Shown here: in pieces, positions 11,117-21,520 of the stretch
Numbering within the stretch: position 1 is the first letter of the stretch
How the letters are laid out: the number at the start of each line of letters is the position of its first letter
Origin: Pseudomonadota bacterium
Lineage (GTDB): Bacteria; Bdellovibrionota_B; Oligoflexia; Oligoflexales; CAIYRB01
Assembly: GCA_031416315.1 (NCBI GenBank)
Contig: JANOTL010000006.1
Coordinates: 1 to 22,356, forward strand
Length of the DNA: 22,356 bases
Reading direction: 5' to 3'
Made by a program: the position numbers and the translations under genes
Notes under the pieces: model-generated
Database searches by the model: none
Told to the model about the DNA's origin: nothing
The model's input: only the letters and a program-made list of their open reading frames with translations

Positions 11117-13195
11117 GTGATCGAGACCCAGAAATCGTCGCCGAGCGGAGTCTCGCGCAGTCGAGCCGATGCGACCGCATACCGCGCCGACATCGACGGT
11201 CTTCGCGCCGTTTCGGTTCTCGCGATCATCGTGCACCACCTCGAGCGGTCGGCCCTGCCCGGGGGCTTCGTCGGAGTCGACGTTTTCTTCGTCATCTCCG
11301 GCTTTCTCGTCACGCGCAAGGTCGTCGAAGCGCAACGTCGCGGCGCCTTCTCGTTTTTCGACTTTTACCTCGGCCGGGTCCGGCGCCTCGCGCCGGCCTT
11401 CTTCCTCATGGCTACCACGACGCTCGCGGCGGGCTTCATCCTGCTTTTGCCGGGCGATATGATCCGCCTCGCGGAATCCGCGATCTGGGCGACCTTTTCG
11501 CTCGCGAACGTCTTCGCTTGGGCGCGGACGGATGAGGGATATTTCGCCGCTTCGAGCTCGGAGATGCCCTTGCTCCACACCTGGTCGCTTGGAGTCGAAG
11601 AGCAGTTTTACCTGCTGTGGCCGGCCGCGCTCCTTTTGGCCGGGGCCGCCCGAAAGCCTTGGGCACGTTCCGTCGTGCTGCCGGCGATCGTCGGCGTCGC
11701 ATCGTTCGGCTGTGCCGAGGCGTTCAACATCTCGAGGCAGAGCTTCGCGTATTACATGCTCCCCGCGAGGGCCGGCGAGTTGATGATCGGGGCGATGCTC
11801 ACGTTCGCGAGCGATGCTAGCAAAGTCGACACGCTCGAGCGGCGGCCATTCCTAGTCGATCTCATCGCCGTGGTAGGCTTCACGATGCTCGCGTTTTCGG
11901 CCCTTACTTTCCACGAACGCACCCCGTTCCCCGGTTTGTTGGCGCTTGTGCCCTGCGTCGGCGCCGCTGCCGTGATGTTTGCGGGAGAGTACGGCTCTCG
12001 AATCGTCGCGCGTCTCCTGACGCCGCGTCCTATCGTCTTTCTCGGATTGATCTCGTACGGGCTCTACCTTTGGCATTGGCCAATTCTCGCCTTCATCCGC
12101 TACTTTCATGGGACCATAGAATTCGGACCGGGTGCCCTTGCCGTCGTCGCGATTCTGGCCCTCGCCACCGTGAGTTACCGACTGGTCGAGCGTCCCGCGC
12201 GACGCTGGCGCGTGCAGCCTTCGAAGCAGCTCGGCTATTGTCTCGTCGGTCCATCGGCCGCTCTGATCGTGGCGGCCTTGGGCATCTTCTGGACGCGCGG
12301 CATGGAGAACCACGTTACGTCGCTGCCGCGCTATCGTGAGACCGCCGCCATCGAGGCGGGGAACACGCCGATGTATCGGCAGCGCCAGGCATGCCTAATG
12401 CCTGTGGCTGACGCGCATAGCATGGATGATGACCATTGCGTCATCGGCTCGGAAGAGGGCACGACCGGAAAGGAAGATTCGGGGGTATTGCTGTGGGGCG
12501 ACTCGCACGCGGCGCACTACGTTCCAATCGTTTCGCAGGTCGCGGCCCGAGCGGGACTGCGGGTCCGGACTGCCAGCCATCCGACATGCCCGCCAGTTTT
12601 CGGCGGCGAGTACGGCGCCGGCAAGTATCGCGTCGGCTGCGGCGATTTCAGGTCGCTCGTCGAGAAGGTGATCTCGAGTGGAAGATTCCACACCGTCCTG
12701 ATCGGCGCGAGCTGGGGTAGCTATTATGGCCAACCAAGCTTTCGCACGGACCTGGAGCGGACGCTCCGGGAGCTCAATGAGCTCAAGATTGAGATCTTGA
12801 TCCTGGGGCAAACTCCGTACTTTCCGGATTATCACCGCATGTGTGACTTGCGCGGCCTGCGACTCGGCGGCATCGACTGTCGCGGCCGTCGCGAGTCGAA
12901 GCATCTGCGACGGTCGGATGCAAATAAGTACCTCGAGCAATTGGCGGCGGCGCGGCCATTGAGACATTATTTCGACGTCTGGGGGATCCTTTGCCCAAAC
13001 GGGAAGTGCTCGCCTTACCTCGACGATCAGCCCGTCTACTTTGACGGTGCTCATCTGAGCGAAACGGGAGGGAGGTTGATCGGGCGAAAAATCCTCGACC
13101 TGGCTGACCGCGAGCCAAACCAATTGGTCGCGGTACTGAATCGCGTCGGCAGCCGGCAGAATGCCGCGGACTCGGCCGATCGTAGTCCGCCGTGA
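11117..13195 (+). CDS. Acyltransferase family 3 fused to an SGNH domain (OafA/OafB-like surface-polysaccharide O-acetyltransferase)
   Basis: YRADIDGLRA, GVDVFFVISGFL, LHTWSLGVEEQFY and GLISYGLYLWHWP; C-terminal GDSHA and DxxH (DGAH) SGNH catalytic motifs. Confidence 0.94.
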   Translation: MIETQKSSPSGVSRSRADATAYRADIDGLRAVSVLAIIVHHLERSALPGGFVGVDVFFVISGFLVTRKVVEAQRRGAFSFFDFYLGRVRRLAPAFFLMATTTLAAGFILLLPGDMIRLAESAIWATFSLANVFAWARTDEGYFAASSSEMPLLHTWSLGVEEQFYLLWPAALLLAGAARKPWARSVVLPAIVGVASFGCAEAFNISRQSFAYYMLPARAGELMIGAMLTFASDASKVDTLERRPFLVDLIAVVGFTMLAFSALTFHERTPFPGLLALVPCVGAAAVMFAGEYGSRIVARLLTPRPIVFLGLISYGLYLWHWPILAFIRYFHGTIEFGPGALAVVAILALATVSYRLVERPARRWRVQPSKQLGYCLVGPSAALIVAALGIFWTRGMENHVTSLPRYRETAAIEAGNTPMYRQRQACLMPVADAHSMDDDHCVIGSEEGTTGKEDSGVLLWGDSHAAHYVPIVSQVAARAGLRVRTASHPTCPPVFGGEYGAGKYRVGCGDFRSLVEKVISSGRFHTVLIGASWGSYYGQPSFRTDLERTLRELNELKIEILILGQTPYFPDYHRMCDLRGLRLGGIDCRGRRESKHLRRSDANKYLEQLAAARPLRHYFDVWGILCPNGKCSPYLDDQPVYFDGAHLSETGGRLIGRKILDLADREPNQLVAVLNRVGSRQNAADSADRSPP

Positions 13196-13476: not shown

Positions 13477-14832
13477 TCAAGGGCATTTGAAAGCGTCGGC
13501 GAGGCGATCCTCGGCGTAGGCGGGGAAGACGGCTTTCACGACGGCGCACTGCGCCGCGTTCAAGTCCTTGTTCGGCGCGACCGTGAGGAGGGCCTCTTCG
13601 ATCACGGCGTCGAAGTCGAGCGAGGCGTCGCGATCGGCGCGCTGAAGGTCGCCGAGGCGGCGCGACCATGCGAGCAGGTAGGCGGACTGCGAGGAGACGT
13701 CGCCTTCGCCCGAGGCGCCGAACAAGCGGGCGATGCCGTGGGCGATGATGGCGCCGATGGCGTGCTCGTCCTGGAGGTTCGGCTCGTTGCAGGTGGCGCG
13801 CGGCGGGCCTTTGGTCTCGGAGAAGTAGAGACCCAAGACCTCGCGGTCCAGGGCTTTGACGCGGCCGTCGGCGAAGACGGGCGAGCCGACGTCGCGGTTC
13901 TTCTCGAAGCAGTCGAGACCATCTGTCTGGCCGGTTTTGCCGCCTAGGGCGTAATACGCGAAAAGGTCGGCGTAGCCTTCGTTCGCGGCGTCCCAGACGT
14001 CCTCGTCGCCAACGTCGCGGTCGACGAGGGCTAAGCCCAAGTTCTTCGCGTTGCGCGTGAAGCTGACGACGCCGGTATGCGTGCGGAAGACGTGGTGGCC
14101 GTACTCGTGCGCCAGCACCCAGGGGATCTCCCAGAGGTTCAGGCCCTTCCAAAGGCCTTGGCGCACTGCTTCGCGGCTCTTCGGATAGACGACGAAGACG
14201 GGCGAGCCGCCGAATTCGGACACGTAGGCCAAGTTGTCGGAGCTGATCTCGCGTTTGACGACGGCGCCGGAGCGATCCTTCACTTGCTTCTCGATCGAGG
14301 GCAGGACGAGGAGGTAGGCGGCGAGGATCGAGGTCTGTTGGCCCTCGATGCCGCGATAGAAGGCTTCGGCCTGGTTGATGCTGGCCAAGCTCGAGAGCGC
14401 TACGCCTTCGACCGAGACGCGGTCGTAGGCTTTGGCTTGCGTGCAAATCCGCAGCGCTCGCTCGGTGCCGATAGTCTTCGACTCGCCGTCGCAGGTCTCG
14501 AGGTCGCCGTCCACGCAGGTCTTCACCTGGCGGAAATCGTAAAAGGTGGCGCTGACCGCCGAGCTTTTCAGGGTGTCGGTGGCGGAGGTGCCGTCAAAGG
14601 CGAACTTGGTCGAGCGCGAGGCGCCCTCCTGCCATTGGAAGATGGACTGGGAGCCGACGTCCGCCAAGCCGCCTTTCGCCTGACAATCCAGGTCCTGGAC
14701 GAAATAGCGGTCCGCGAGGGCGGCGTCGTTCGGCAGCTGGTCGATGACCTCGACCTTCTTCTCTTCTTGAATGCGAACGCCGCAGCCGGAAGCGATTGCG
14801 GACGCCGCGAGGAACAAGGGTAGGAGCTTCAA
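13477..14832 (-). CDS. Lipoprotein zinc metalloprotease (gluzincin, M4/M36-like)
   Basis: Lipobox ASGC, HEXXH (AHEYGHH), third ligand in NEGYAD and a downstream DEHAIG motif; TTG start after CGAGG. Confidence 0.78.
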   Translation of the reverse strand: MKLLPLFLAASAIASGCGVRIQEEKKVEVIDQLPNDAALADRYFVQDLDCQAKGGLADVGSQSIFQWQEGASRSTKFAFDGTSATDTLKSSAVSATFYDFRQVKTCVDGDLETCDGESKTIGTERALRICTQAKAYDRVSVEGVALSSLASINQAEAFYRGIEGQQTSILAAYLLVLPSIEKQVKDRSGAVVKREISSDNLAYVSEFGGSPVFVVYPKSREAVRQGLWKGLNLWEIPWVLAHEYGHHVFRTHTGVVSFTRNAKNLGLALVDRDVGDEDVWDAANEGYADLFAYYALGGKTGQTDGLDCFEKNRDVGSPVFADGRVKALDREVLGLYFSETKGPPRATCNEPNLQDEHAIGAIIAHGIARLFGASGEGDVSSQSAYLLAWSRRLGDLQRADRDASLDFDAVIEEALLTVAPNKDLNAAQCAVVKAVFPAYAEDRLADAFKCP

Positions 14833-14898: not shown

Positions 14899-16881
14899 TT
14901 AGGCGCTGACCAGCACTAGATCACAAGCGATCGTGACTTGACCCTCGGTCCGCGGACGGAACTTGATCTTCGTGCCGACCTTCAGGGCGGCGAGCTCGGC
15001 CCTTTGGACGTCGCTCGGGAAAAACATGATTGAGCCCTGGGTGAAAGACGGATCGTCGACCGCGATCCAACCCACGCGCTCGGGGTTCCAGTGCGCGACG
15101 CGGCCCGAGAACTCGAAGTCGGCCTTGGAGCCTTCCAAGACCATCGTCCCGGTCGTCTTGATCGCGGTGAGCGCTTTCTCGAACGCGGCGAGCTTCGGAT
15201 CGTTCTCTTGCACGAAGACGTAGAGCATATGCTTGGCGCGCGTGCAGGCGACGTAGATCAGGCTGGACATGATCGGATGGTCGACGGGGAGGTTGTACTC
15301 GCTGACGTTGAGTAGGATGCCGACCGGCGTCTCCATGCCCTTGAAGCCGGCGATGGTCGAGATGCCGAGCGTGTCCTTCGGGGCTTTCGCCTCTTTCCAG
15401 GACTTCTTGCCGGTCGAGGAGAGCTTGTGCAGCGGGATCTTCACGATCTCTTCGGTTTGATAGAGCACCGACTCGCGGGCGGCCGGGTTCCGGGCGGAGA
15501 GGAGCGTGATCTCTTCGTTGGAGAGGCCTTCCTCACGCGTCAGCTTGCGGACGAGCTTGCCGAGGATGCGGCGTGCGTCCTCCGCGTCTTTGTAGACGAT
15601 GATCTCAGGGACGTAGCCGAGGCGGCCGCAGTGCGATTGCAAGACGCCGTCGTTGGTGCGGAAGGCGCGGGCGAAGGTCGCGATCTCGCGCGTGGTCCGG
15701 TAGTTGTGGACCAGGGGAAAATACGGCGGCTTGATCGGCAGAGCTTGCGAGGCGTCGAACTTTTGGCCCTCGCCGCCGGAGCCGAAGAGGCCCTGGCTGC
15801 CGTCGAAGAAGATGTAAAAGCGGTCGGCGATCAAGGTCTCGATCGCGTCCCACCAGAAGGGCTGCACGTCCTGCGCTTCGTCGCAGATGACGACGTCGTA
15901 CTTCTTGTTTACGCTCAGGATGGCCTTTTTCAGGCGCTCGGGCGCCTCATATTGCATCCAGTCGTCTTTTGCGCCGGTGAAATCCTGGGGCGCGATGAGA
16001 AGGTTGACGCCGAAGTCCATCGCTAGCTCGGGATAGGTGGCGACGGCGATGCCTTCGCCGAGATCTTTCTGCAGGCAGAGGTTGAGCAGTGAGTTGGAGC
16101 CGAGCACGAGGACGGATTTCCCGGCGTCGCGAAAGTGCTTCGCGAGCATCACGGCGAGCATGGTCTTGCCGGTTCCGGCCTCGCCTTCGATGCCCAAGCG
16201 CTTCGAGGAGGCGATCGGGGTGATTAGGGTCTCGTGGATGGACTCGACGTCCTTGACGCGGTGCTCGTGGCTGTCCAGGTAGTCGCGCAGGTACATCTTG
16301 GTGGTGAAGGTCGAGCCGATCAGCAAGCGGTCGAGCTCGGCGCCGACGTCGTCGAAGCGCAGGTACTGCTCGGGCTGCGATTTATGCACGAGGGTCTTCA
16401 GCGCGCTCTCGAGGTCCTTGATGCGGTTGCGTCCGATGATGATCTCGCGGGCGTGGTTCGCCGTCTCGGGAAACTCCTCCTCGGCCGCGCTCGGGAAGCA
16501 GACGGCGTGGCTGACGGGGACTCTGATGTTGCTCTTGCGCAGGAAACGCAGGAAGCGGCTCTTCCAGACGAGAGCCTGCTGGAAGGGGTCTTTGATCTCG
16601 AAGGTCTCGCCGTGGCGGTTCATCGAGGAGAAGTTGCCGTTCTCGTAGCGGATGCGCCCGCCTTTCACTTCCACGACGACGACGCCGTATTGCGGGTGGT
16701 AGAGGACGAAGTCCATCTCATTGTCTTTGAGGCCGCCGTCTTCCATCTGCGAGAGGGTGCAGGAGAAGAAGACGCGCCAGGCGCTTCCGAGCTGCGTCTT
16801 CGCCGCTTGGTAGAACTGCTCTTCGGCGGCGGAGCCGAAGATCACGCGGGCTTTGTCGCTGTCGGGATGCATGCGGGCCAT
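14899..16881 (-). CDS. NERD nuclease plus superfamily-1 (UvrD-like) helicase plus C-terminal cold-shock/OB-fold domain
   Basis: NERD EMDFVLYHPQYGVVVVEVKGG...DPFQQA; Walker A GEAGTGKT; DEAQD; NYRTT; TIAGFKGME; YVACTRAK. The C-terminal GRVAHWNPERVGWI...IMFFPSDV...LKVGTKIKF...ACDL resembles a CSD. Confidence 0.9.
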   Translation of the reverse strand: MARMHPDSDKARVIFGSAAEEQFYQAAKTQLGSAWRVFFSCTLSQMEDGGLKDNEMDFVLYHPQYGVVVVEVKGGRIRYENGNFSSMNRHGETFEIKDPFQQALVWKSRFLRFLRKSNIRVPVSHAVCFPSAAEEEFPETANHAREIIIGRNRIKDLESALKTLVHKSQPEQYLRFDDVGAELDRLLIGSTFTTKMYLRDYLDSHEHRVKDVESIHETLITPIASSKRLGIEGEAGTGKTMLAVMLAKHFRDAGKSVLVLGSNSLLNLCLQKDLGEGIAVATYPELAMDFGVNLLIAPQDFTGAKDDWMQYEAPERLKKAILSVNKKYDVVICDEAQDVQPFWWDAIETLIADRFYIFFDGSQGLFGSGGEGQKFDASQALPIKPPYFPLVHNYRTTREIATFARAFRTNDGVLQSHCGRLGYVPEIIVYKDAEDARRILGKLVRKLTREEGLSNEEITLLSARNPAARESVLYQTEEIVKIPLHKLSSTGKKSWKEAKAPKDTLGISTIAGFKGMETPVGILLNVSEYNLPVDHPIMSSLIYVACTRAKHMLYVFVQENDPKLAAFEKALTAIKTTGTMVLEGSKADFEFSGRVAHWNPERVGWIAVDDPSFTQGSIMFFPSDVQRAELAALKVGTKIKFRPRTEGQVTIACDLVLVSA

Positions 16882-16884
16882 AGT

Positions 16885-18861
16885 TTATGTCTTTCTCGGT
16901 GAACGGGAGCTGGAGGCAGAAACCATCGTCGTTACTTCTTTTTCCGAAAGATAAGCGCCGTGGACGCGGTGCGTGCCGCCCGAAGCGAGGTAAAGCATGT
17001 CGCCCTTGCCGAGGAGCGTCTCGGCGCCCGAGGCGTCGAGGATCGTCCGCGAGTCGATGCCCGAGAGGACGCGGAAGGAGACGCGGGTCGGGAAGTTGGC
17101 TTTGATGAGGCCGGTGATCACGTCCGCCGAAGGGCGCTGGGTCGCGATGACCATGTGGATGCCGCAAGCGCGAGCTTTCTGCGCCAGGCGGGTGATCGGG
17201 GTCTCGGCGTCTTTGCCGAGGAGCATCATCATGTCGGCCATCTCGTCGACGATCAGCACGATGTAGGGCATGGCGACCCATTTGCCTTCGAACGCCATGA
17301 ACTCGTTCTTCTTGCGGGTCTTCACGATCTCGTTGAAGGAGTCCATGTTGCGGGCGCCGACGGCCCGCATGCGGCGGTAGCGGTCTTCCATCTCGTTGAC
17401 GAGCGCGTTGAGCGCGGCGCGGCCTTCTGTCTGCACGTCGGTGATCACCGGGCAGGCCATATGCGGCAGGTCGTTGTAGGCGGCCATCTCGACCATCTTC
17501 GGGTCGATCATGACGAAGCGCAGGTCCTTCGCCGTGTGGCGGGAGATCAAGGAGCCGATCAGCGTGTTCATGAACACCGACTTGCCCGCGCCGGTCGAGC
17601 CGGCGACGAGAAGGTGCGGCATCTCGACGAGATCCTTGACGATGGCGTTGCCGAAGATGTCGACGCCCATGGCGATCGGGAGCCTGACGCGGGAGTCTTT
17701 GAACTCTTTCGCTTCCACGAGGTCGGCGAAGCCGATGATGGCGCGCTCGACGTTGGGGACCTCGAAGCCGACGGTGTCCTTGCCCGGGATCGGCGCGAGG
17801 ACGCGCAGGGACTGCGCTTTCAGCATACGGGCCAGGTCTTCGCCGAGGGCGGAGATCTTGCTGACTTTCGTGCCGGGAGCCGGCTTGAACTCGAAGGTGG
17901 TGACGACCGGACCCTGGGTCACGGCGACGATCTCGCCCATGATCTTGAACTGGGCCAGCTGCTCGGTGAGGTTGGCGGCGATGACCTTGAAGTCTTCGCT
18001 GCGGTCGGCGCCCTTCTTGGTGCGCGAGAAGATCGAGACGTCGGGCTTGCCGTGCGCGGGGCCTTCATAGACTAGATCCATCTCGGCGACCGGGCCGATC
18101 GGAGCGTGCGAGGCCGCCTTCGGCTCGTGACTGGGTGCGGCCTTCGCTTGACCTTCGGCCGCGGCGTGCGAGGCATCGGCGCGGGCGACGCGGGCCGCCT
18201 TCGCGACCTCTGCCGGGGTCAGCGGCAGCACTTCGTTGAGGATGTACTTCTTCCAGCCGCGGATCGCGAGCTTCTTGAACAGATACCAGAGATTCTGGAC
18301 GTGCTCGGCGGTGCGCGAGACGTGCAGGTTTTCCGTGAGGACCAGCGCCGTGATGGCGAAGAGGAGCATGGCGAGAAAGGCGCCGCCGAAGCCCAGGTTG
18401 GGGACGAACGAGCGCTCGATCATGTGGCCGATGATGCCGCCGAAGCCGAAGCTCGGCTCGGGGAGGCCCGTGCGCGGCAGGAGGAGCTGGAAGAGGCCGG
18501 CGCTGGAGCAGATCGCCGCGAAGAAGCCGAGGAACTTGCGCGGGCGGGGCCAGAGGACGAAGCCCGTCGCCGTCAAGGTGCCCCAAGCGAGGAAGATCAC
18601 CGGCCAGATCATCCCGATCACGCCGAAGCGGCCCAGGATGTGCGCGGCGCAGTAGGCTCCGAAGTTGCCGGCGAGGTTCGAGACGCCTTTGGCGCTCAAG
18701 CCGTGCATCCCGTAGTCGTAAGGGCTGAAAGAGTAGCAGGCCAGCGCCAGGAAGACGCCCATCGCCAAGAGCGTGAAGCCCCAGGCCTCTTTCACCGCCG
18801 ACCGGCTCGGGAGAGATTCTTTGATTTCTTCTTCGAATGCCGTCGAGAACAACATCGACAT
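16885..18861 (-). CDS. ftsK: FtsK/SpoIIIE DNA translocase with N-terminal TM domain, lacking the gamma domain
   Basis: FtsK_4TM-like N-terminus (SFSPYD, NLAGNFGA, GGIIG), alpha domain GPVVTTFEFKPAPGTKVSKI, Walker A GSTGAGKS, IDPKMVE, Walker B IVDEMAD, ATQRPS and GAETLLGKGDMLY. It ends about 20 aa after RVHGAY. Confidence 0.92.
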   Translation of the reverse strand: MSMLFSTAFEEEIKESLPSRSAVKEAWGFTLLAMGVFLALACYSFSPYDYGMHGLSAKGVSNLAGNFGAYCAAHILGRFGVIGMIWPVIFLAWGTLTATGFVLWPRPRKFLGFFAAICSSAGLFQLLLPRTGLPEPSFGFGGIIGHMIERSFVPNLGFGGAFLAMLLFAITALVLTENLHVSRTAEHVQNLWYLFKKLAIRGWKKYILNEVLPLTPAEVAKAARVARADASHAAAEGQAKAAPSHEPKAASHAPIGPVAEMDLVYEGPAHGKPDVSIFSRTKKGADRSEDFKVIAANLTEQLAQFKIMGEIVAVTQGPVVTTFEFKPAPGTKVSKISALGEDLARMLKAQSLRVLAPIPGKDTVGFEVPNVERAIIGFADLVEAKEFKDSRVRLPIAMGVDIFGNAIVKDLVEMPHLLVAGSTGAGKSVFMNTLIGSLISRHTAKDLRFVMIDPKMVEMAAYNDLPHMACPVITDVQTEGRAALNALVNEMEDRYRRMRAVGARNMDSFNEIVKTRKKNEFMAFEGKWVAMPYIVLIVDEMADMMMLLGKDAETPITRLAQKARACGIHMVIATQRPSADVITGLIKANFPTRVSFRVLSGIDSRTILDASGAETLLGKGDMLYLASGGTHRVHGAYLSEKEVTTMVSASSSRSPRKT

Positions 18862-18998
18862 CGCCTTAACCCCACGTCCACATCAATAGGAGGAACAACA
18901 GCAACAGAGAGAGCCGCACACGCTAATACAAGTCTCGCACCAGGTACCGAACCGCGATTTCCCTGAGGAAATCCCGAAAATTACTGTCAGGATCTTGG

Positions 18999-19700
18999 TC
19001 ACTCGTCGCCGAAGATCTCGGTCGCGTACCAGCCGTTACCGACTCTCGCGACGCCGATGCCCATGGCGGCGTAGTCGCCCATCATGTTGGCGTAGTGTCC
19101 GGGGCTGTTCTTCCACATGTCGAAAAATTCGCGAGCGACATCTTGGCCGTAGCCGGTCATCGCGACGTTTTCCGCCGAGATGTCGGCGCGCGCGCCCGAG
19201 AACTCCTCGCTGAACTTGCGCGAGCGCTGGTTGGGGAAACCGTCGTGACCGATGGATCCGCGCCGCGCCTGCACTGCCGACCAGTCGCGTGCCAGCCAGG
19301 AGAGCTTGGGCGCCGCTTTAAGCGGGCCTTTCTTGCGACCAAAAGGTCCGCCCTTGGCGCGCTCTTCGTTGGTGAGGCGAAGGATCTCCGCCTCGATCTT
19401 GCAGATCTCGGCGTCGCCTTTGTAACATTCGTTCGCCGCCGCAGGCGGCGTTGCCTGGGCGTCCTCGTCCACCGCCGCGCCGCCCGGGTTGGCGGCGCCG
19501 CCATTGTCCGGCTGGGGATTCAGGTTCGGCTTGGTCCCGCTCGAGCCGGAGCCCGTGCCCTTGCCGCCTTCGATCTTACCTTCGATCTTCACGCCGGGCG
19601 CCTTGTAGCCGGCGTCGCCTTTGGAGGCTTTGTCGGTCGTGTTGCAGGCGGCGAGGAACGAGGCGCAGAGAGCGATGACAAGGCAATGGATGGTCTTCAT
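18999..19700 (-). CDS. CAP/SCP-domain lipoprotein
   Basis: Lipobox LAAC, Gly/Pro linker, LTNEER, IGHDG, AENVA and WKNSPGHYANM. Start ATG 19700 after GGAG. Confidence 0.92.
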   Translation of the reverse strand: MKTIHCLVIALCASFLAACNTTDKASKGDAGYKAPGVKIEGKIEGGKGTGSGSSGTKPNLNPQPDNGGAANPGGAAVDEDAQATPPAAANECYKGDAEICKIEAEILRLTNEERAKGGPFGRKKGPLKAAPKLSWLARDWSAVQARRGSIGHDGFPNQRSRKFSEEFSGARADISAENVAMTGYGQDVAREFFDMWKNSPGHYANMMGDYAAMGIGVARVGNGWYATEIFGDE

Positions 19701-19736
19701 TTGGGCCAGCTCCGCGAGTGAGGATGGCCTCCTCAT

Positions 19737-19753
19737 TGCAAAAGCCAAGCCGG
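19737..19753 (-). promoter_or_regulatory. Possible sigma54 (-24/-12) promoter for the CAP gene
   Basis: Minus strand CCGGCTTGGCTTTTGCA has GG-N10-GC spacing with TTGCA, about 37 nt upstream of the ATG. The -24 context is imperfect. Confidence 0.3.

Positions 19754-19897: not shown

Positions 19898-21516
<1,619 letters not shown>

Positions 21517-21520
<4 letters not shown>

Follow-up and report, generated by a model that had tools for sequence, protein, structure and literature searches.

A gamma-less second FtsK and its nuclease-helicase neighbour in the bacterial order Oligoflexales

What does a membrane-anchored FtsK do without its gamma domain, and does it work with a nuclease-helicase encoded immediately downstream? 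This question is raised by a 22,356-nucleotide stretch of DNA (the window; contig JANOTL010000006.1, positions 1 to 22,356 of the forward strand, assembly GCA_031416315.1, here genome G000) from a Pseudomonadota bacterium assigned by GTDB to the order Oligoflexales. On its minus strand, ftsK2, which encodes an FtsK paralogue lacking gamma, is followed by a gene for a protein that appears to join a NERD nuclease, a superfamily 1 (SF1) helicase and a cold-shock domain (CSD), referred to below as the helicase. A first-pass annotation, made from the sequence alone, proposed that the two proteins work as a coupled pump and nuclease, or that they could take the place of gamma. Judged by comparison with related sequences, FtsK2 is an old, intact second paralogue under strong purifying selection, not a truncation. 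We think it reasonably probable that FtsK2 acts as an accessory, sequence-blind membrane DNA pump at the septum, and that the helicase is independent of it, the two genes sharing an ancestral operon.

A second FtsK without gamma

Pfam matches on the 658-residue FtsK2 comprise FtsK_4TM (PF13491; E = 4.6e-26, profile positions 4-170 of 171), FtsK_alpha (3.6e-27) and FtsK_SpoIIIE (7.7e-62), with no match to FtsK_gamma (PF09397) at E ≤ 0.05. The protein ends 21 aa past the motif RVHGAY, and the anchored alpha/beta motor ending about 20 aa beyond that motif, as described in the first-pass annotation, is thereby borne out. The stop codon of ftsK2 (TAA, 16887-16885) is separated by 3 nucleotides (nt) from the helicase start codon (ATG, 16881), which leaves no room for gamma, as had also been noted. 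A second, gamma-containing ftsK, for which the annotation had proposed a search, lies on contig C153 of the same genome; its 774-aa product carries the sole FtsK_gamma match in the genome (E = 9.7e-21), and its motor is 44% identical to that of FtsK2. We surveyed 95 genomes of the order, with cut-offs of E ≤ 1e-112 for FtsK2 and E ≤ 1e-30 for the helicase; many of these genomes are incomplete, and absence here means that a gene was not found. FtsK2 occurs in 17 of them, and all 17 hold a separate gamma-bearing FtsK (a gamma match elsewhere in the genome), which argues against FtsK2 as a replacement for gamma. An additional 36 genomes of the phylum yielded no further FtsK2 (17/131 in total).

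A protein search with FtsK2 returned 91 close clusters (P0121-P0211), reaching down to about 44% identity, and none has gamma. Search scores fall from 507 bits (P0210; a partial row has 453) to 424 bits, where gamma-bearing proteins start; among the 120 clusters listed, 94 lack gamma and 26 have it. The end point is also constant, since 88 of the 91 stop 15-28 aa beyond the last motor strand motif and 3 were not measurable. In a quick maximum-likelihood tree of 110 motor domains, FtsK2 forms one clade (48 rows, SH-aLRT 100), separate from the canonical FtsK of the order, FtsK1 (32 rows, 98), and the motor divergence is 0.44 for FtsK2 versus 0.43 for FtsK1 (7 genomes). Of 104 FtsK2 rows, 103 retain Walker A, the Walker B Glu, the arginine finger, loop II and R661, and one is gapped there; these rows overlap between genome loci and clusters, and residue numbering follows PDB 2iuu and the accessible text of PMC7321959. 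Because its patterns matched all FtsKs, a metagenome scan with a deep alignment of FtsK2 picked up 80 loci in which neither a short tail nor an adjoining helicase was seen. The suggestion that FtsK2 is a recent truncation, a pseudogene or an assembly error could draw on the ftsK2 of one relative, genome G010 (contig C184, L127), whose frameshift near aa 385 marks either a gene on its way to becoming a pseudogene or a faulty assembly. Because 91 clusters lack gamma and the 88 that could be measured share one end point, FtsK2 is not a product of chance or error; together with purifying selection, this refutes the suggestion, whose probability we put at practically nil. The first-pass view that this is not a canonical dimer-resolution FtsK stands, the loss of gamma being old.

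Compared with FtsK/SpoIIIE (P. aeruginosa motor, PDB 2iuu/6t8b; NCBIfam PRK10263), FtsK2 shares the divisome-type 4TM anchor, alpha, beta, the catalytic residues, loop II and R661, but it lacks gamma, has a short linker, is a second copy, and has a changed loop I, with K657 replaced by Gly, Ala or Ser and Arg at the Q653 position. K657 contacts DNA in P. aeruginosa FtsK; at this position, 104 FtsK2 rows have Gly in 90, Ala in 8, Ser in 4 and Met in 1, and Arg or Lys stands four residues earlier in 103. By comparison, Lys or Arg occupies the K657 position in 50/50 gamma-type rows. However, the basic residue is also missing in 23 of 76 metagenome FtsKs, a caution against making too much of the loop change in FtsK2. 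A search with one outlier FtsK brought up a second discrete gamma-less 4TM set of 83 clusters (P0225, P0228, P0232 and P0281-P0360), and three of ten members looked up carry the label Bdellovibrionales or Bdellovibrionota. The 80 measurable members have lost K657 and have Lys at the Q653 position. FtsK2 and this sister set group together in two trees (SH-aLRT 99 and 90), both of them quick, without bootstrap, midpoint-rooted and with long stems; a common origin is likely, but not firm.

Gamma-less 4TM FtsKs are already known as a Pfam class: 47 such proteins served as a comparison set in 2016, and they share the architecture of FtsK2, as does the laboratory mutant SpoIIIE-delta-gamma (PMC4744071). 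Unlike FtsK2, the 47 are not grouped into a clade in the accessible text of that paper, nor linked there to a lineage, to a second copy or to any neighbour. According to the same text, SpoIIIE without gamma performs poorly in vivo, and single substitutions restore sporulation but not vegetative transport. The proline that matches SpoIIIE P492, placed from the primer table of PMC4744071, is Ala in 92, Thr in 2 and Pro in 9 of 103 FtsK2 rows, and Pro in 76 of 77 metagenome FtsKs. We considered a parallel with the P492 suppressor as support for FtsK2 and rejected it: Ala is found in 17.9% of gamma-bearing proteins (PMC4744071, Table D), the suppressor was Gln, and the sister clade retains Pro in 83/83. 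NERD-helicases are likewise known (PMC9226505, PMC12839542 and PMC10853773, in their accessible parts), and PMC8445325 names FtsK in its references only. No publication on the FtsK2 clade or on the FtsK2-helicase pair was found in a search that left most subscription papers, including FtsK-diversity reviews, outside its reach.

The helicase and its association with ftsK2

Pfam matches on the 660-aa helicase protein comprise NERD (E = 3.3e-9) and SF1 helicase families, in agreement with the fusion read at first pass. NERD residues E20, E55, D57, E71, K73 and Q102 are unchanged in all 57 aligned rows (14 with FtsK2, 30 without it or of unknown status, and 13 gammaproteobacterial), and the PD-(D/E)XK and helicase motifs are invariant across them, apart from two C-terminal motifs gapped in one partial row. 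The cold-shock domain that had been assigned to the C-terminus is upheld only in divergent form. Pfam detects no such domain on the window protein and finds it in just one of 42 aligned C-termini. A profile built from all 42, in contrast, has cold-shock proteins as its top three PDB matches (E = 0.0087, 0.058 and 0.064; 18 matches at E ≤ 10). When compared with 1.84 billion protein representatives, the profile gave 38 matches; judged by score, the first 26 look like members of the family, and the three examined after them, the first from outside it, are true CSD proteins. The domain also has aromatic RNP-like positions, and the case for a divergent cold-shock domain is weak but consistent. In the ESM Atlas, nothing matched the C-terminal domain, and the whole protein matched generic NERD-helicase clusters. 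Known NERD-SF1 helicases (PADLOC RTasNERD-Hel and C3a187; UG34-associated cluster 485, accessible text of PMC9226505) have the same NERD and UvrD-like layout over aa 1-560; the protein studied here differs in its extra C-terminal CSD, its core-like inheritance, and the lack of a reverse transcriptase or CRISPR neighbour at this locus. In two separate gammaproteobacterial clades (L082-L091, L094, L106, L110, L115), the NERD-helicase-CSD gene stands alone, and many copies have a long low-complexity C-terminal tail; each of five genomes reached via these loci gave a single long, low-identity FtsK match.

The helicase was found in 63 of the 95 genomes: 16 have both genes, 47 have the helicase only, one has FtsK2 only, and 31 have neither. 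In all 16 genomes with both, the genes adjoin on the same strand, so that the pair is indeed adjacent in relatives. The coupled system inferred from this adjacency fares less well, since 47 of the 63 helicase-bearing genomes have an intact helicase but no FtsK2, and FtsK2 is intact without the helicase in G021, a 97% complete genome with a 678-aa FtsK2 and no helicase orthologue found even by profile. The G021 protein retains all 33 listed FtsK2-specific residues despite having no helicase. Genomes G047 and G066 retain the helicase without any FtsK_alpha match, and strict motor-nuclease co-occurrence, as in HerA-NurA, was not found across the 95 genomes. Nor is the junction distinctive. Stop-to-start gaps range from −4 to 62 nt between ftsK2 and the helicase (11 loci), and from −1 to 31 nt between the unrelated CAP gene and the helicase (8 loci without ftsK2); the 3-nt gap is not special, and the tight junction is an operon feature. 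The helicase adjoins the downstream lipoprotein gene in at least 25 genomes, 13 of them without FtsK2, and a wider block (oxygenase, PBP, lptF, fabF, pdh) recurs, with the nearest four genes in 16-23 of 56 loci. On the helicase tree, FtsK2-linked sequences are scattered over five positions, interspersed with unlinked ones, which fits ancestral adjacency followed by repeated loss of ftsK2. Taken together, sequence comparisons suggest that the two proteins are probably not a dedicated machine; the pair is probably co-transcribed, and would not form an obligate complex.

A looser partnership strikes us as rather unlikely. FtsK2 would feed double-stranded DNA (dsDNA) to the helicase-nuclease at the membrane as a facultative HerA-NurA-like module, and a second, FtsK2-independent role of the helicase would explain its lone persistence. 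Such a module would be consistent with the 16/16 adjacency across gaps of a few tens of bases, with the one-way dependence (16/17), and with the proposal that HerA/FtsK motors channel DNA to nucleases in capture systems (accessible text of PMC12839542). However, when families or genera are counted as lineages, the helicase accompanies FtsK2 in six of seven (P = 0.16 against the 47/78 background). Helicase distances correlate with those of FtsK1 at r = 0.87 versus 0.79 for FtsK2 (7 genomes; a weak test), the partial correlations in these genomes are 0.62 for FtsK1-helicase versus 0.25 for FtsK2-helicase, and the distance comparison gives no co-evolution signal between FtsK2 and the helicase. 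Only one helicase position in the 57-row alignment tracks the presence of FtsK2, and the FtsK2-specific residues of helicase-less G021 are all in place. HerA-NurA and the HerA/FtsK capture systems (PMC12839542, PMC10853773, in their accessible parts) also place an FtsK/HerA-superfamily ATPase beside a nuclease gene, but their motors are of the HerA type in multi-gene defence loci, whereas FtsK2 is a 4TM FtsK of the chromosomal type whose gene lies in a block of housekeeping genes. Moreover, unlike the nuclease partner in HerA-NurA, the NERD-helicase nuclease is mostly found without FtsK2.

Degradation of invading DNA or RNA by the helicase-nuclease, with or without FtsK2, is a further candidate function, and one that we regard as decidedly unlikely. 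The best PADLOC profiles for the helicase are RTasNERD-Hel (E = 1e-42) and C3a187 (3.5e-26), the FtsK2 motor matches SspH, and defence islands show an enrichment of NERD domains (accessible text of PMC9226505). Anti-phage or anti-plasmid defence would also fit two helicase transfers into Gammaproteobacteria and the patchy distribution of the gene, which was not found in 32 of 95 genomes. The PADLOC scan, which the first-pass annotation had proposed, gave profile matches rather than a system call, with no partner genes around the helicase or FtsK2. The helicase is single-copy, evolves slowly and sits at a fixed locus whose neighbours are housekeeping and envelope genes; no defence, mobile or transfer genes occur among the recurring neighbour clusters. 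Searches for close copies on mobile elements point the same way: plasmid matches to the helicase have 23-33% identity in 15 of the 16 records shown, none of 491 plasmid records covers 80% of the FtsK2 query, a phage search gave no close copy and one record at 25% identity, and viral contigs gave no match. FtsK2 is also not recognized as a conjugative pump, scoring 57.9 bits against the TraB model, for which the cut-off is 800.

Xer recombination and gamma in the order

The first-pass annotation had also called for a search for xerC/D and dif. XerD scores above the cut-off in none of the 95 genomes, under a strict model for which 4 of 14 controls reach the cut-off, and dif gave three loose matches in G000, none convincing. 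G000 does encode a conserved, single-copy, 298-aa Xer-like protein beside tadA (contig C109, L232:1411-2307, minus strand). In this protein and in 18/18 orthologues (19/19 rows), Lys replaces the box I Arg and the C-terminal Tyr is missing; the first His is absent as well, at what we take to be the Xer catalytic positions, compared with one intact-looking integrase. The orthologues (L249-L266) come from 20 loci fetched, two of them without an orthologue, and lie beside tadA in 16 of 18 cases. The protein is the only integrase-family match in three of five genomes searched. It looks catalytically dead, and the order may have kept a dead DNA-binding homologue but no active chromosomal Xer. Gamma, meanwhile, is retained in 75 of the 95 genomes. 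It is missing from the canonical FtsK1 in two small-genome families, f5 (0 of 4 genomes with gamma) and f12 (2 of 16), and nine short FtsKs of these families (L128-L136) group with FtsK1, so that this gamma loss is independent of FtsK2. Five of five further f12 genomes (90-94% complete) have no FtsK_alpha match.

The apparent lack of XerD, the Xer-like protein without its catalytic Arg and Tyr, and the absence of a convincing dif could point to Xer-independent unlinking, in which trapped septal DNA would be pumped by FtsK2, cut by the helicase-nuclease and then repaired by recombination. We consider this highly improbable. With FtsK2 found in just 17 of the 95 genomes, and both genes missing from 31, the pair is not a general solution for unlinking; gamma is mostly kept, and other bacteria lack Xer without having such a pair (accessible text of PMC2731167). 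A broader proposal, also improbable in our view, is that an ancient Bdellovibrionota sequence-blind FtsK with a re-wired loop docks, in Oligoflexales, the NERD-helicase-CSD protein in place of gamma; this would give recombinase-free septal clearance of chromosome dimers or foreign DNA, by unlinking or degrading them at the membrane, in cells whose only conserved Xer is dead. For comparison, in B. bacteriovorus both xerCD and dif are present, and a single ftsK is reported (PMC11318664, PMC2731167, in their accessible parts).

The locus and a possible role for FtsK2

Table 1. Features of the ftsK2-helicase locus (window coordinates)
Feature	Position	Strand	Basis or detail
ftsK2, FtsK paralogue without gamma, 658 aa	16885..18861	-	ORF and Pfam
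FtsK_4TM anchor of FtsK2, aa 23-188, four hydrophobic segments	18298..18795	-	Pfam E 4.6e-26 and hydropathy
Alpha domain of FtsK2, aa 274-370	17752..18042	-	Pfam
RecA-fold beta motor of FtsK2, aa ~380-650	16912..17724	-	Pfam and PDB 2iuu mapping
Beta motor residues			Walker A K427; Walker B D539/E540; arginine finger R564; loop II R576/K587
Remodelled DNA-gripping loop I of FtsK2	17047..17073	-	R597 at P. aeruginosa Q653, G601 at K657, R605 (= R661) kept
ftsK2/helicase junction	16879..16887	-	TAA, 3 nt, ATG; gamma would not fit
NERD nuclease-SF1 helicase-cold-shock-like domain protein, 660 aa	14899..16881	-	
NERD PD-(D/E)XK nuclease, aa 16-130	16492..16836	-	Pfam and alignment
SF1 helicase core, aa ~215-562	15196..16239	-	K239, D334/E335, Q363, R395, R548
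Putative divergent cold-shock (OB-fold) domain, aa ~592-658	14908..15108	-	Profile comparison
Lipoprotein downstream of the helicase, conserved helicase neighbour	13477..14832	-	HEYGH and NEGYAD
CAP-domain lipoprotein upstream of ftsK2	18999..19748	-	Adjoins helicase directly where ftsK2 is missing

The third-position GC content (GC3) of ftsK2 and the helicase gene (0.88 and 0.89) is about that of their housekeeping neighbours. The downstream lipoprotein, which we take from its two motifs to be zinc-peptidase-like, belongs to a family without a Pfam entry; members occur in 73 of the 95 genomes, frequently as multiple copies. A PIN-like fragment near 10.5-11 kb and an acyltransferase/SGNH-type gene (11117-13195, plus strand), presumably OatA-like, are inserted between this lipoprotein and the conserved block; the gene has a lower GC3 (0.76) and looks acquired. 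On the other side, a plus-strand gene (19898-21520) encodes a secreted protein of 540 aa that has no Pfam match; it contains a long Pro-Thr repeat and, at the C-terminus, an Asp/Gly-rich repeat region. The 137-nt low-GC gap ahead of ftsK2 (18862-18998) contains a short inverted repeat and is likely its own promoter region; by eye, 14 FtsK2 loci have no common upstream motif and the gap is not conserved, and a promoter/terminator scan of the operon gave no convincing candidate.

As for function, the accessory-pump reading has FtsK2 anchored in the inner membrane, with the division septum as its likeliest site; there it would form a hexamer on dsDNA without reading KOPS. As a back-up to FtsK1, it would pump or clear DNA that the closing septum has trapped, and membrane geometry or FtsK1 would dictate the direction. 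The NERD-SF1-CSD protein would act separately; its motifs suggest an enzyme that uses ATP to unwind and cut single-stranded nucleic acid, and DNA repair or the clean-up of forks or R-loops would be its most likely task. Both genes would descend from an ancestral operon, CAP-ftsK2-helicase-lipoprotein, from which ftsK2 was lost several times. There is precedent for such a motor and for a division of labour: the FtsK alpha-beta motor builds rings and translocates without gamma (accessible text of PMC7321959), and septal work is divided between two translocases in both B. subtilis (SpoIIIE and SftA) and S. aureus (FtsK and SpoIIIE). In the accessible text of PMC5357621, both members of those pairs have gamma and SftA lacks the anchor, whereas FtsK2 is anchored and lacks gamma.

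Several points weigh against the accessory-pump reading. The septal location and the pumping are themselves inferred, and loss of K657 from loop I may mean that FtsK2 has an altered substrate or speed. The gamma-less SpoIIIE of B. subtilis does not rescue vegetative chromosome transport (accessible text of PMC4744071), which makes it less than obvious what use a blind septal pump would be. In addition, the helicase lies directly downstream in 16 of 17 FtsK2 genomes, across five families, and FtsK2 genomes keep this downstream gene more often than the upstream CAP gene.

That the gene pair is a new machine is the less likely outcome. Gamma-less FtsK has been known mainly as a crippled laboratory mutant, and FtsK2 appears to be a natural gamma-less clade under full selection beside a normal FtsK. 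FtsK2 would thus be a natural test case for how a blind motor picks its direction, and for what a second septal pump does. The apparent lack of active XerCD, together with a gamma domain that is mostly retained and has been lost independently in two small-genome families, would make this lineage one in which to study Xer-free unlinking.

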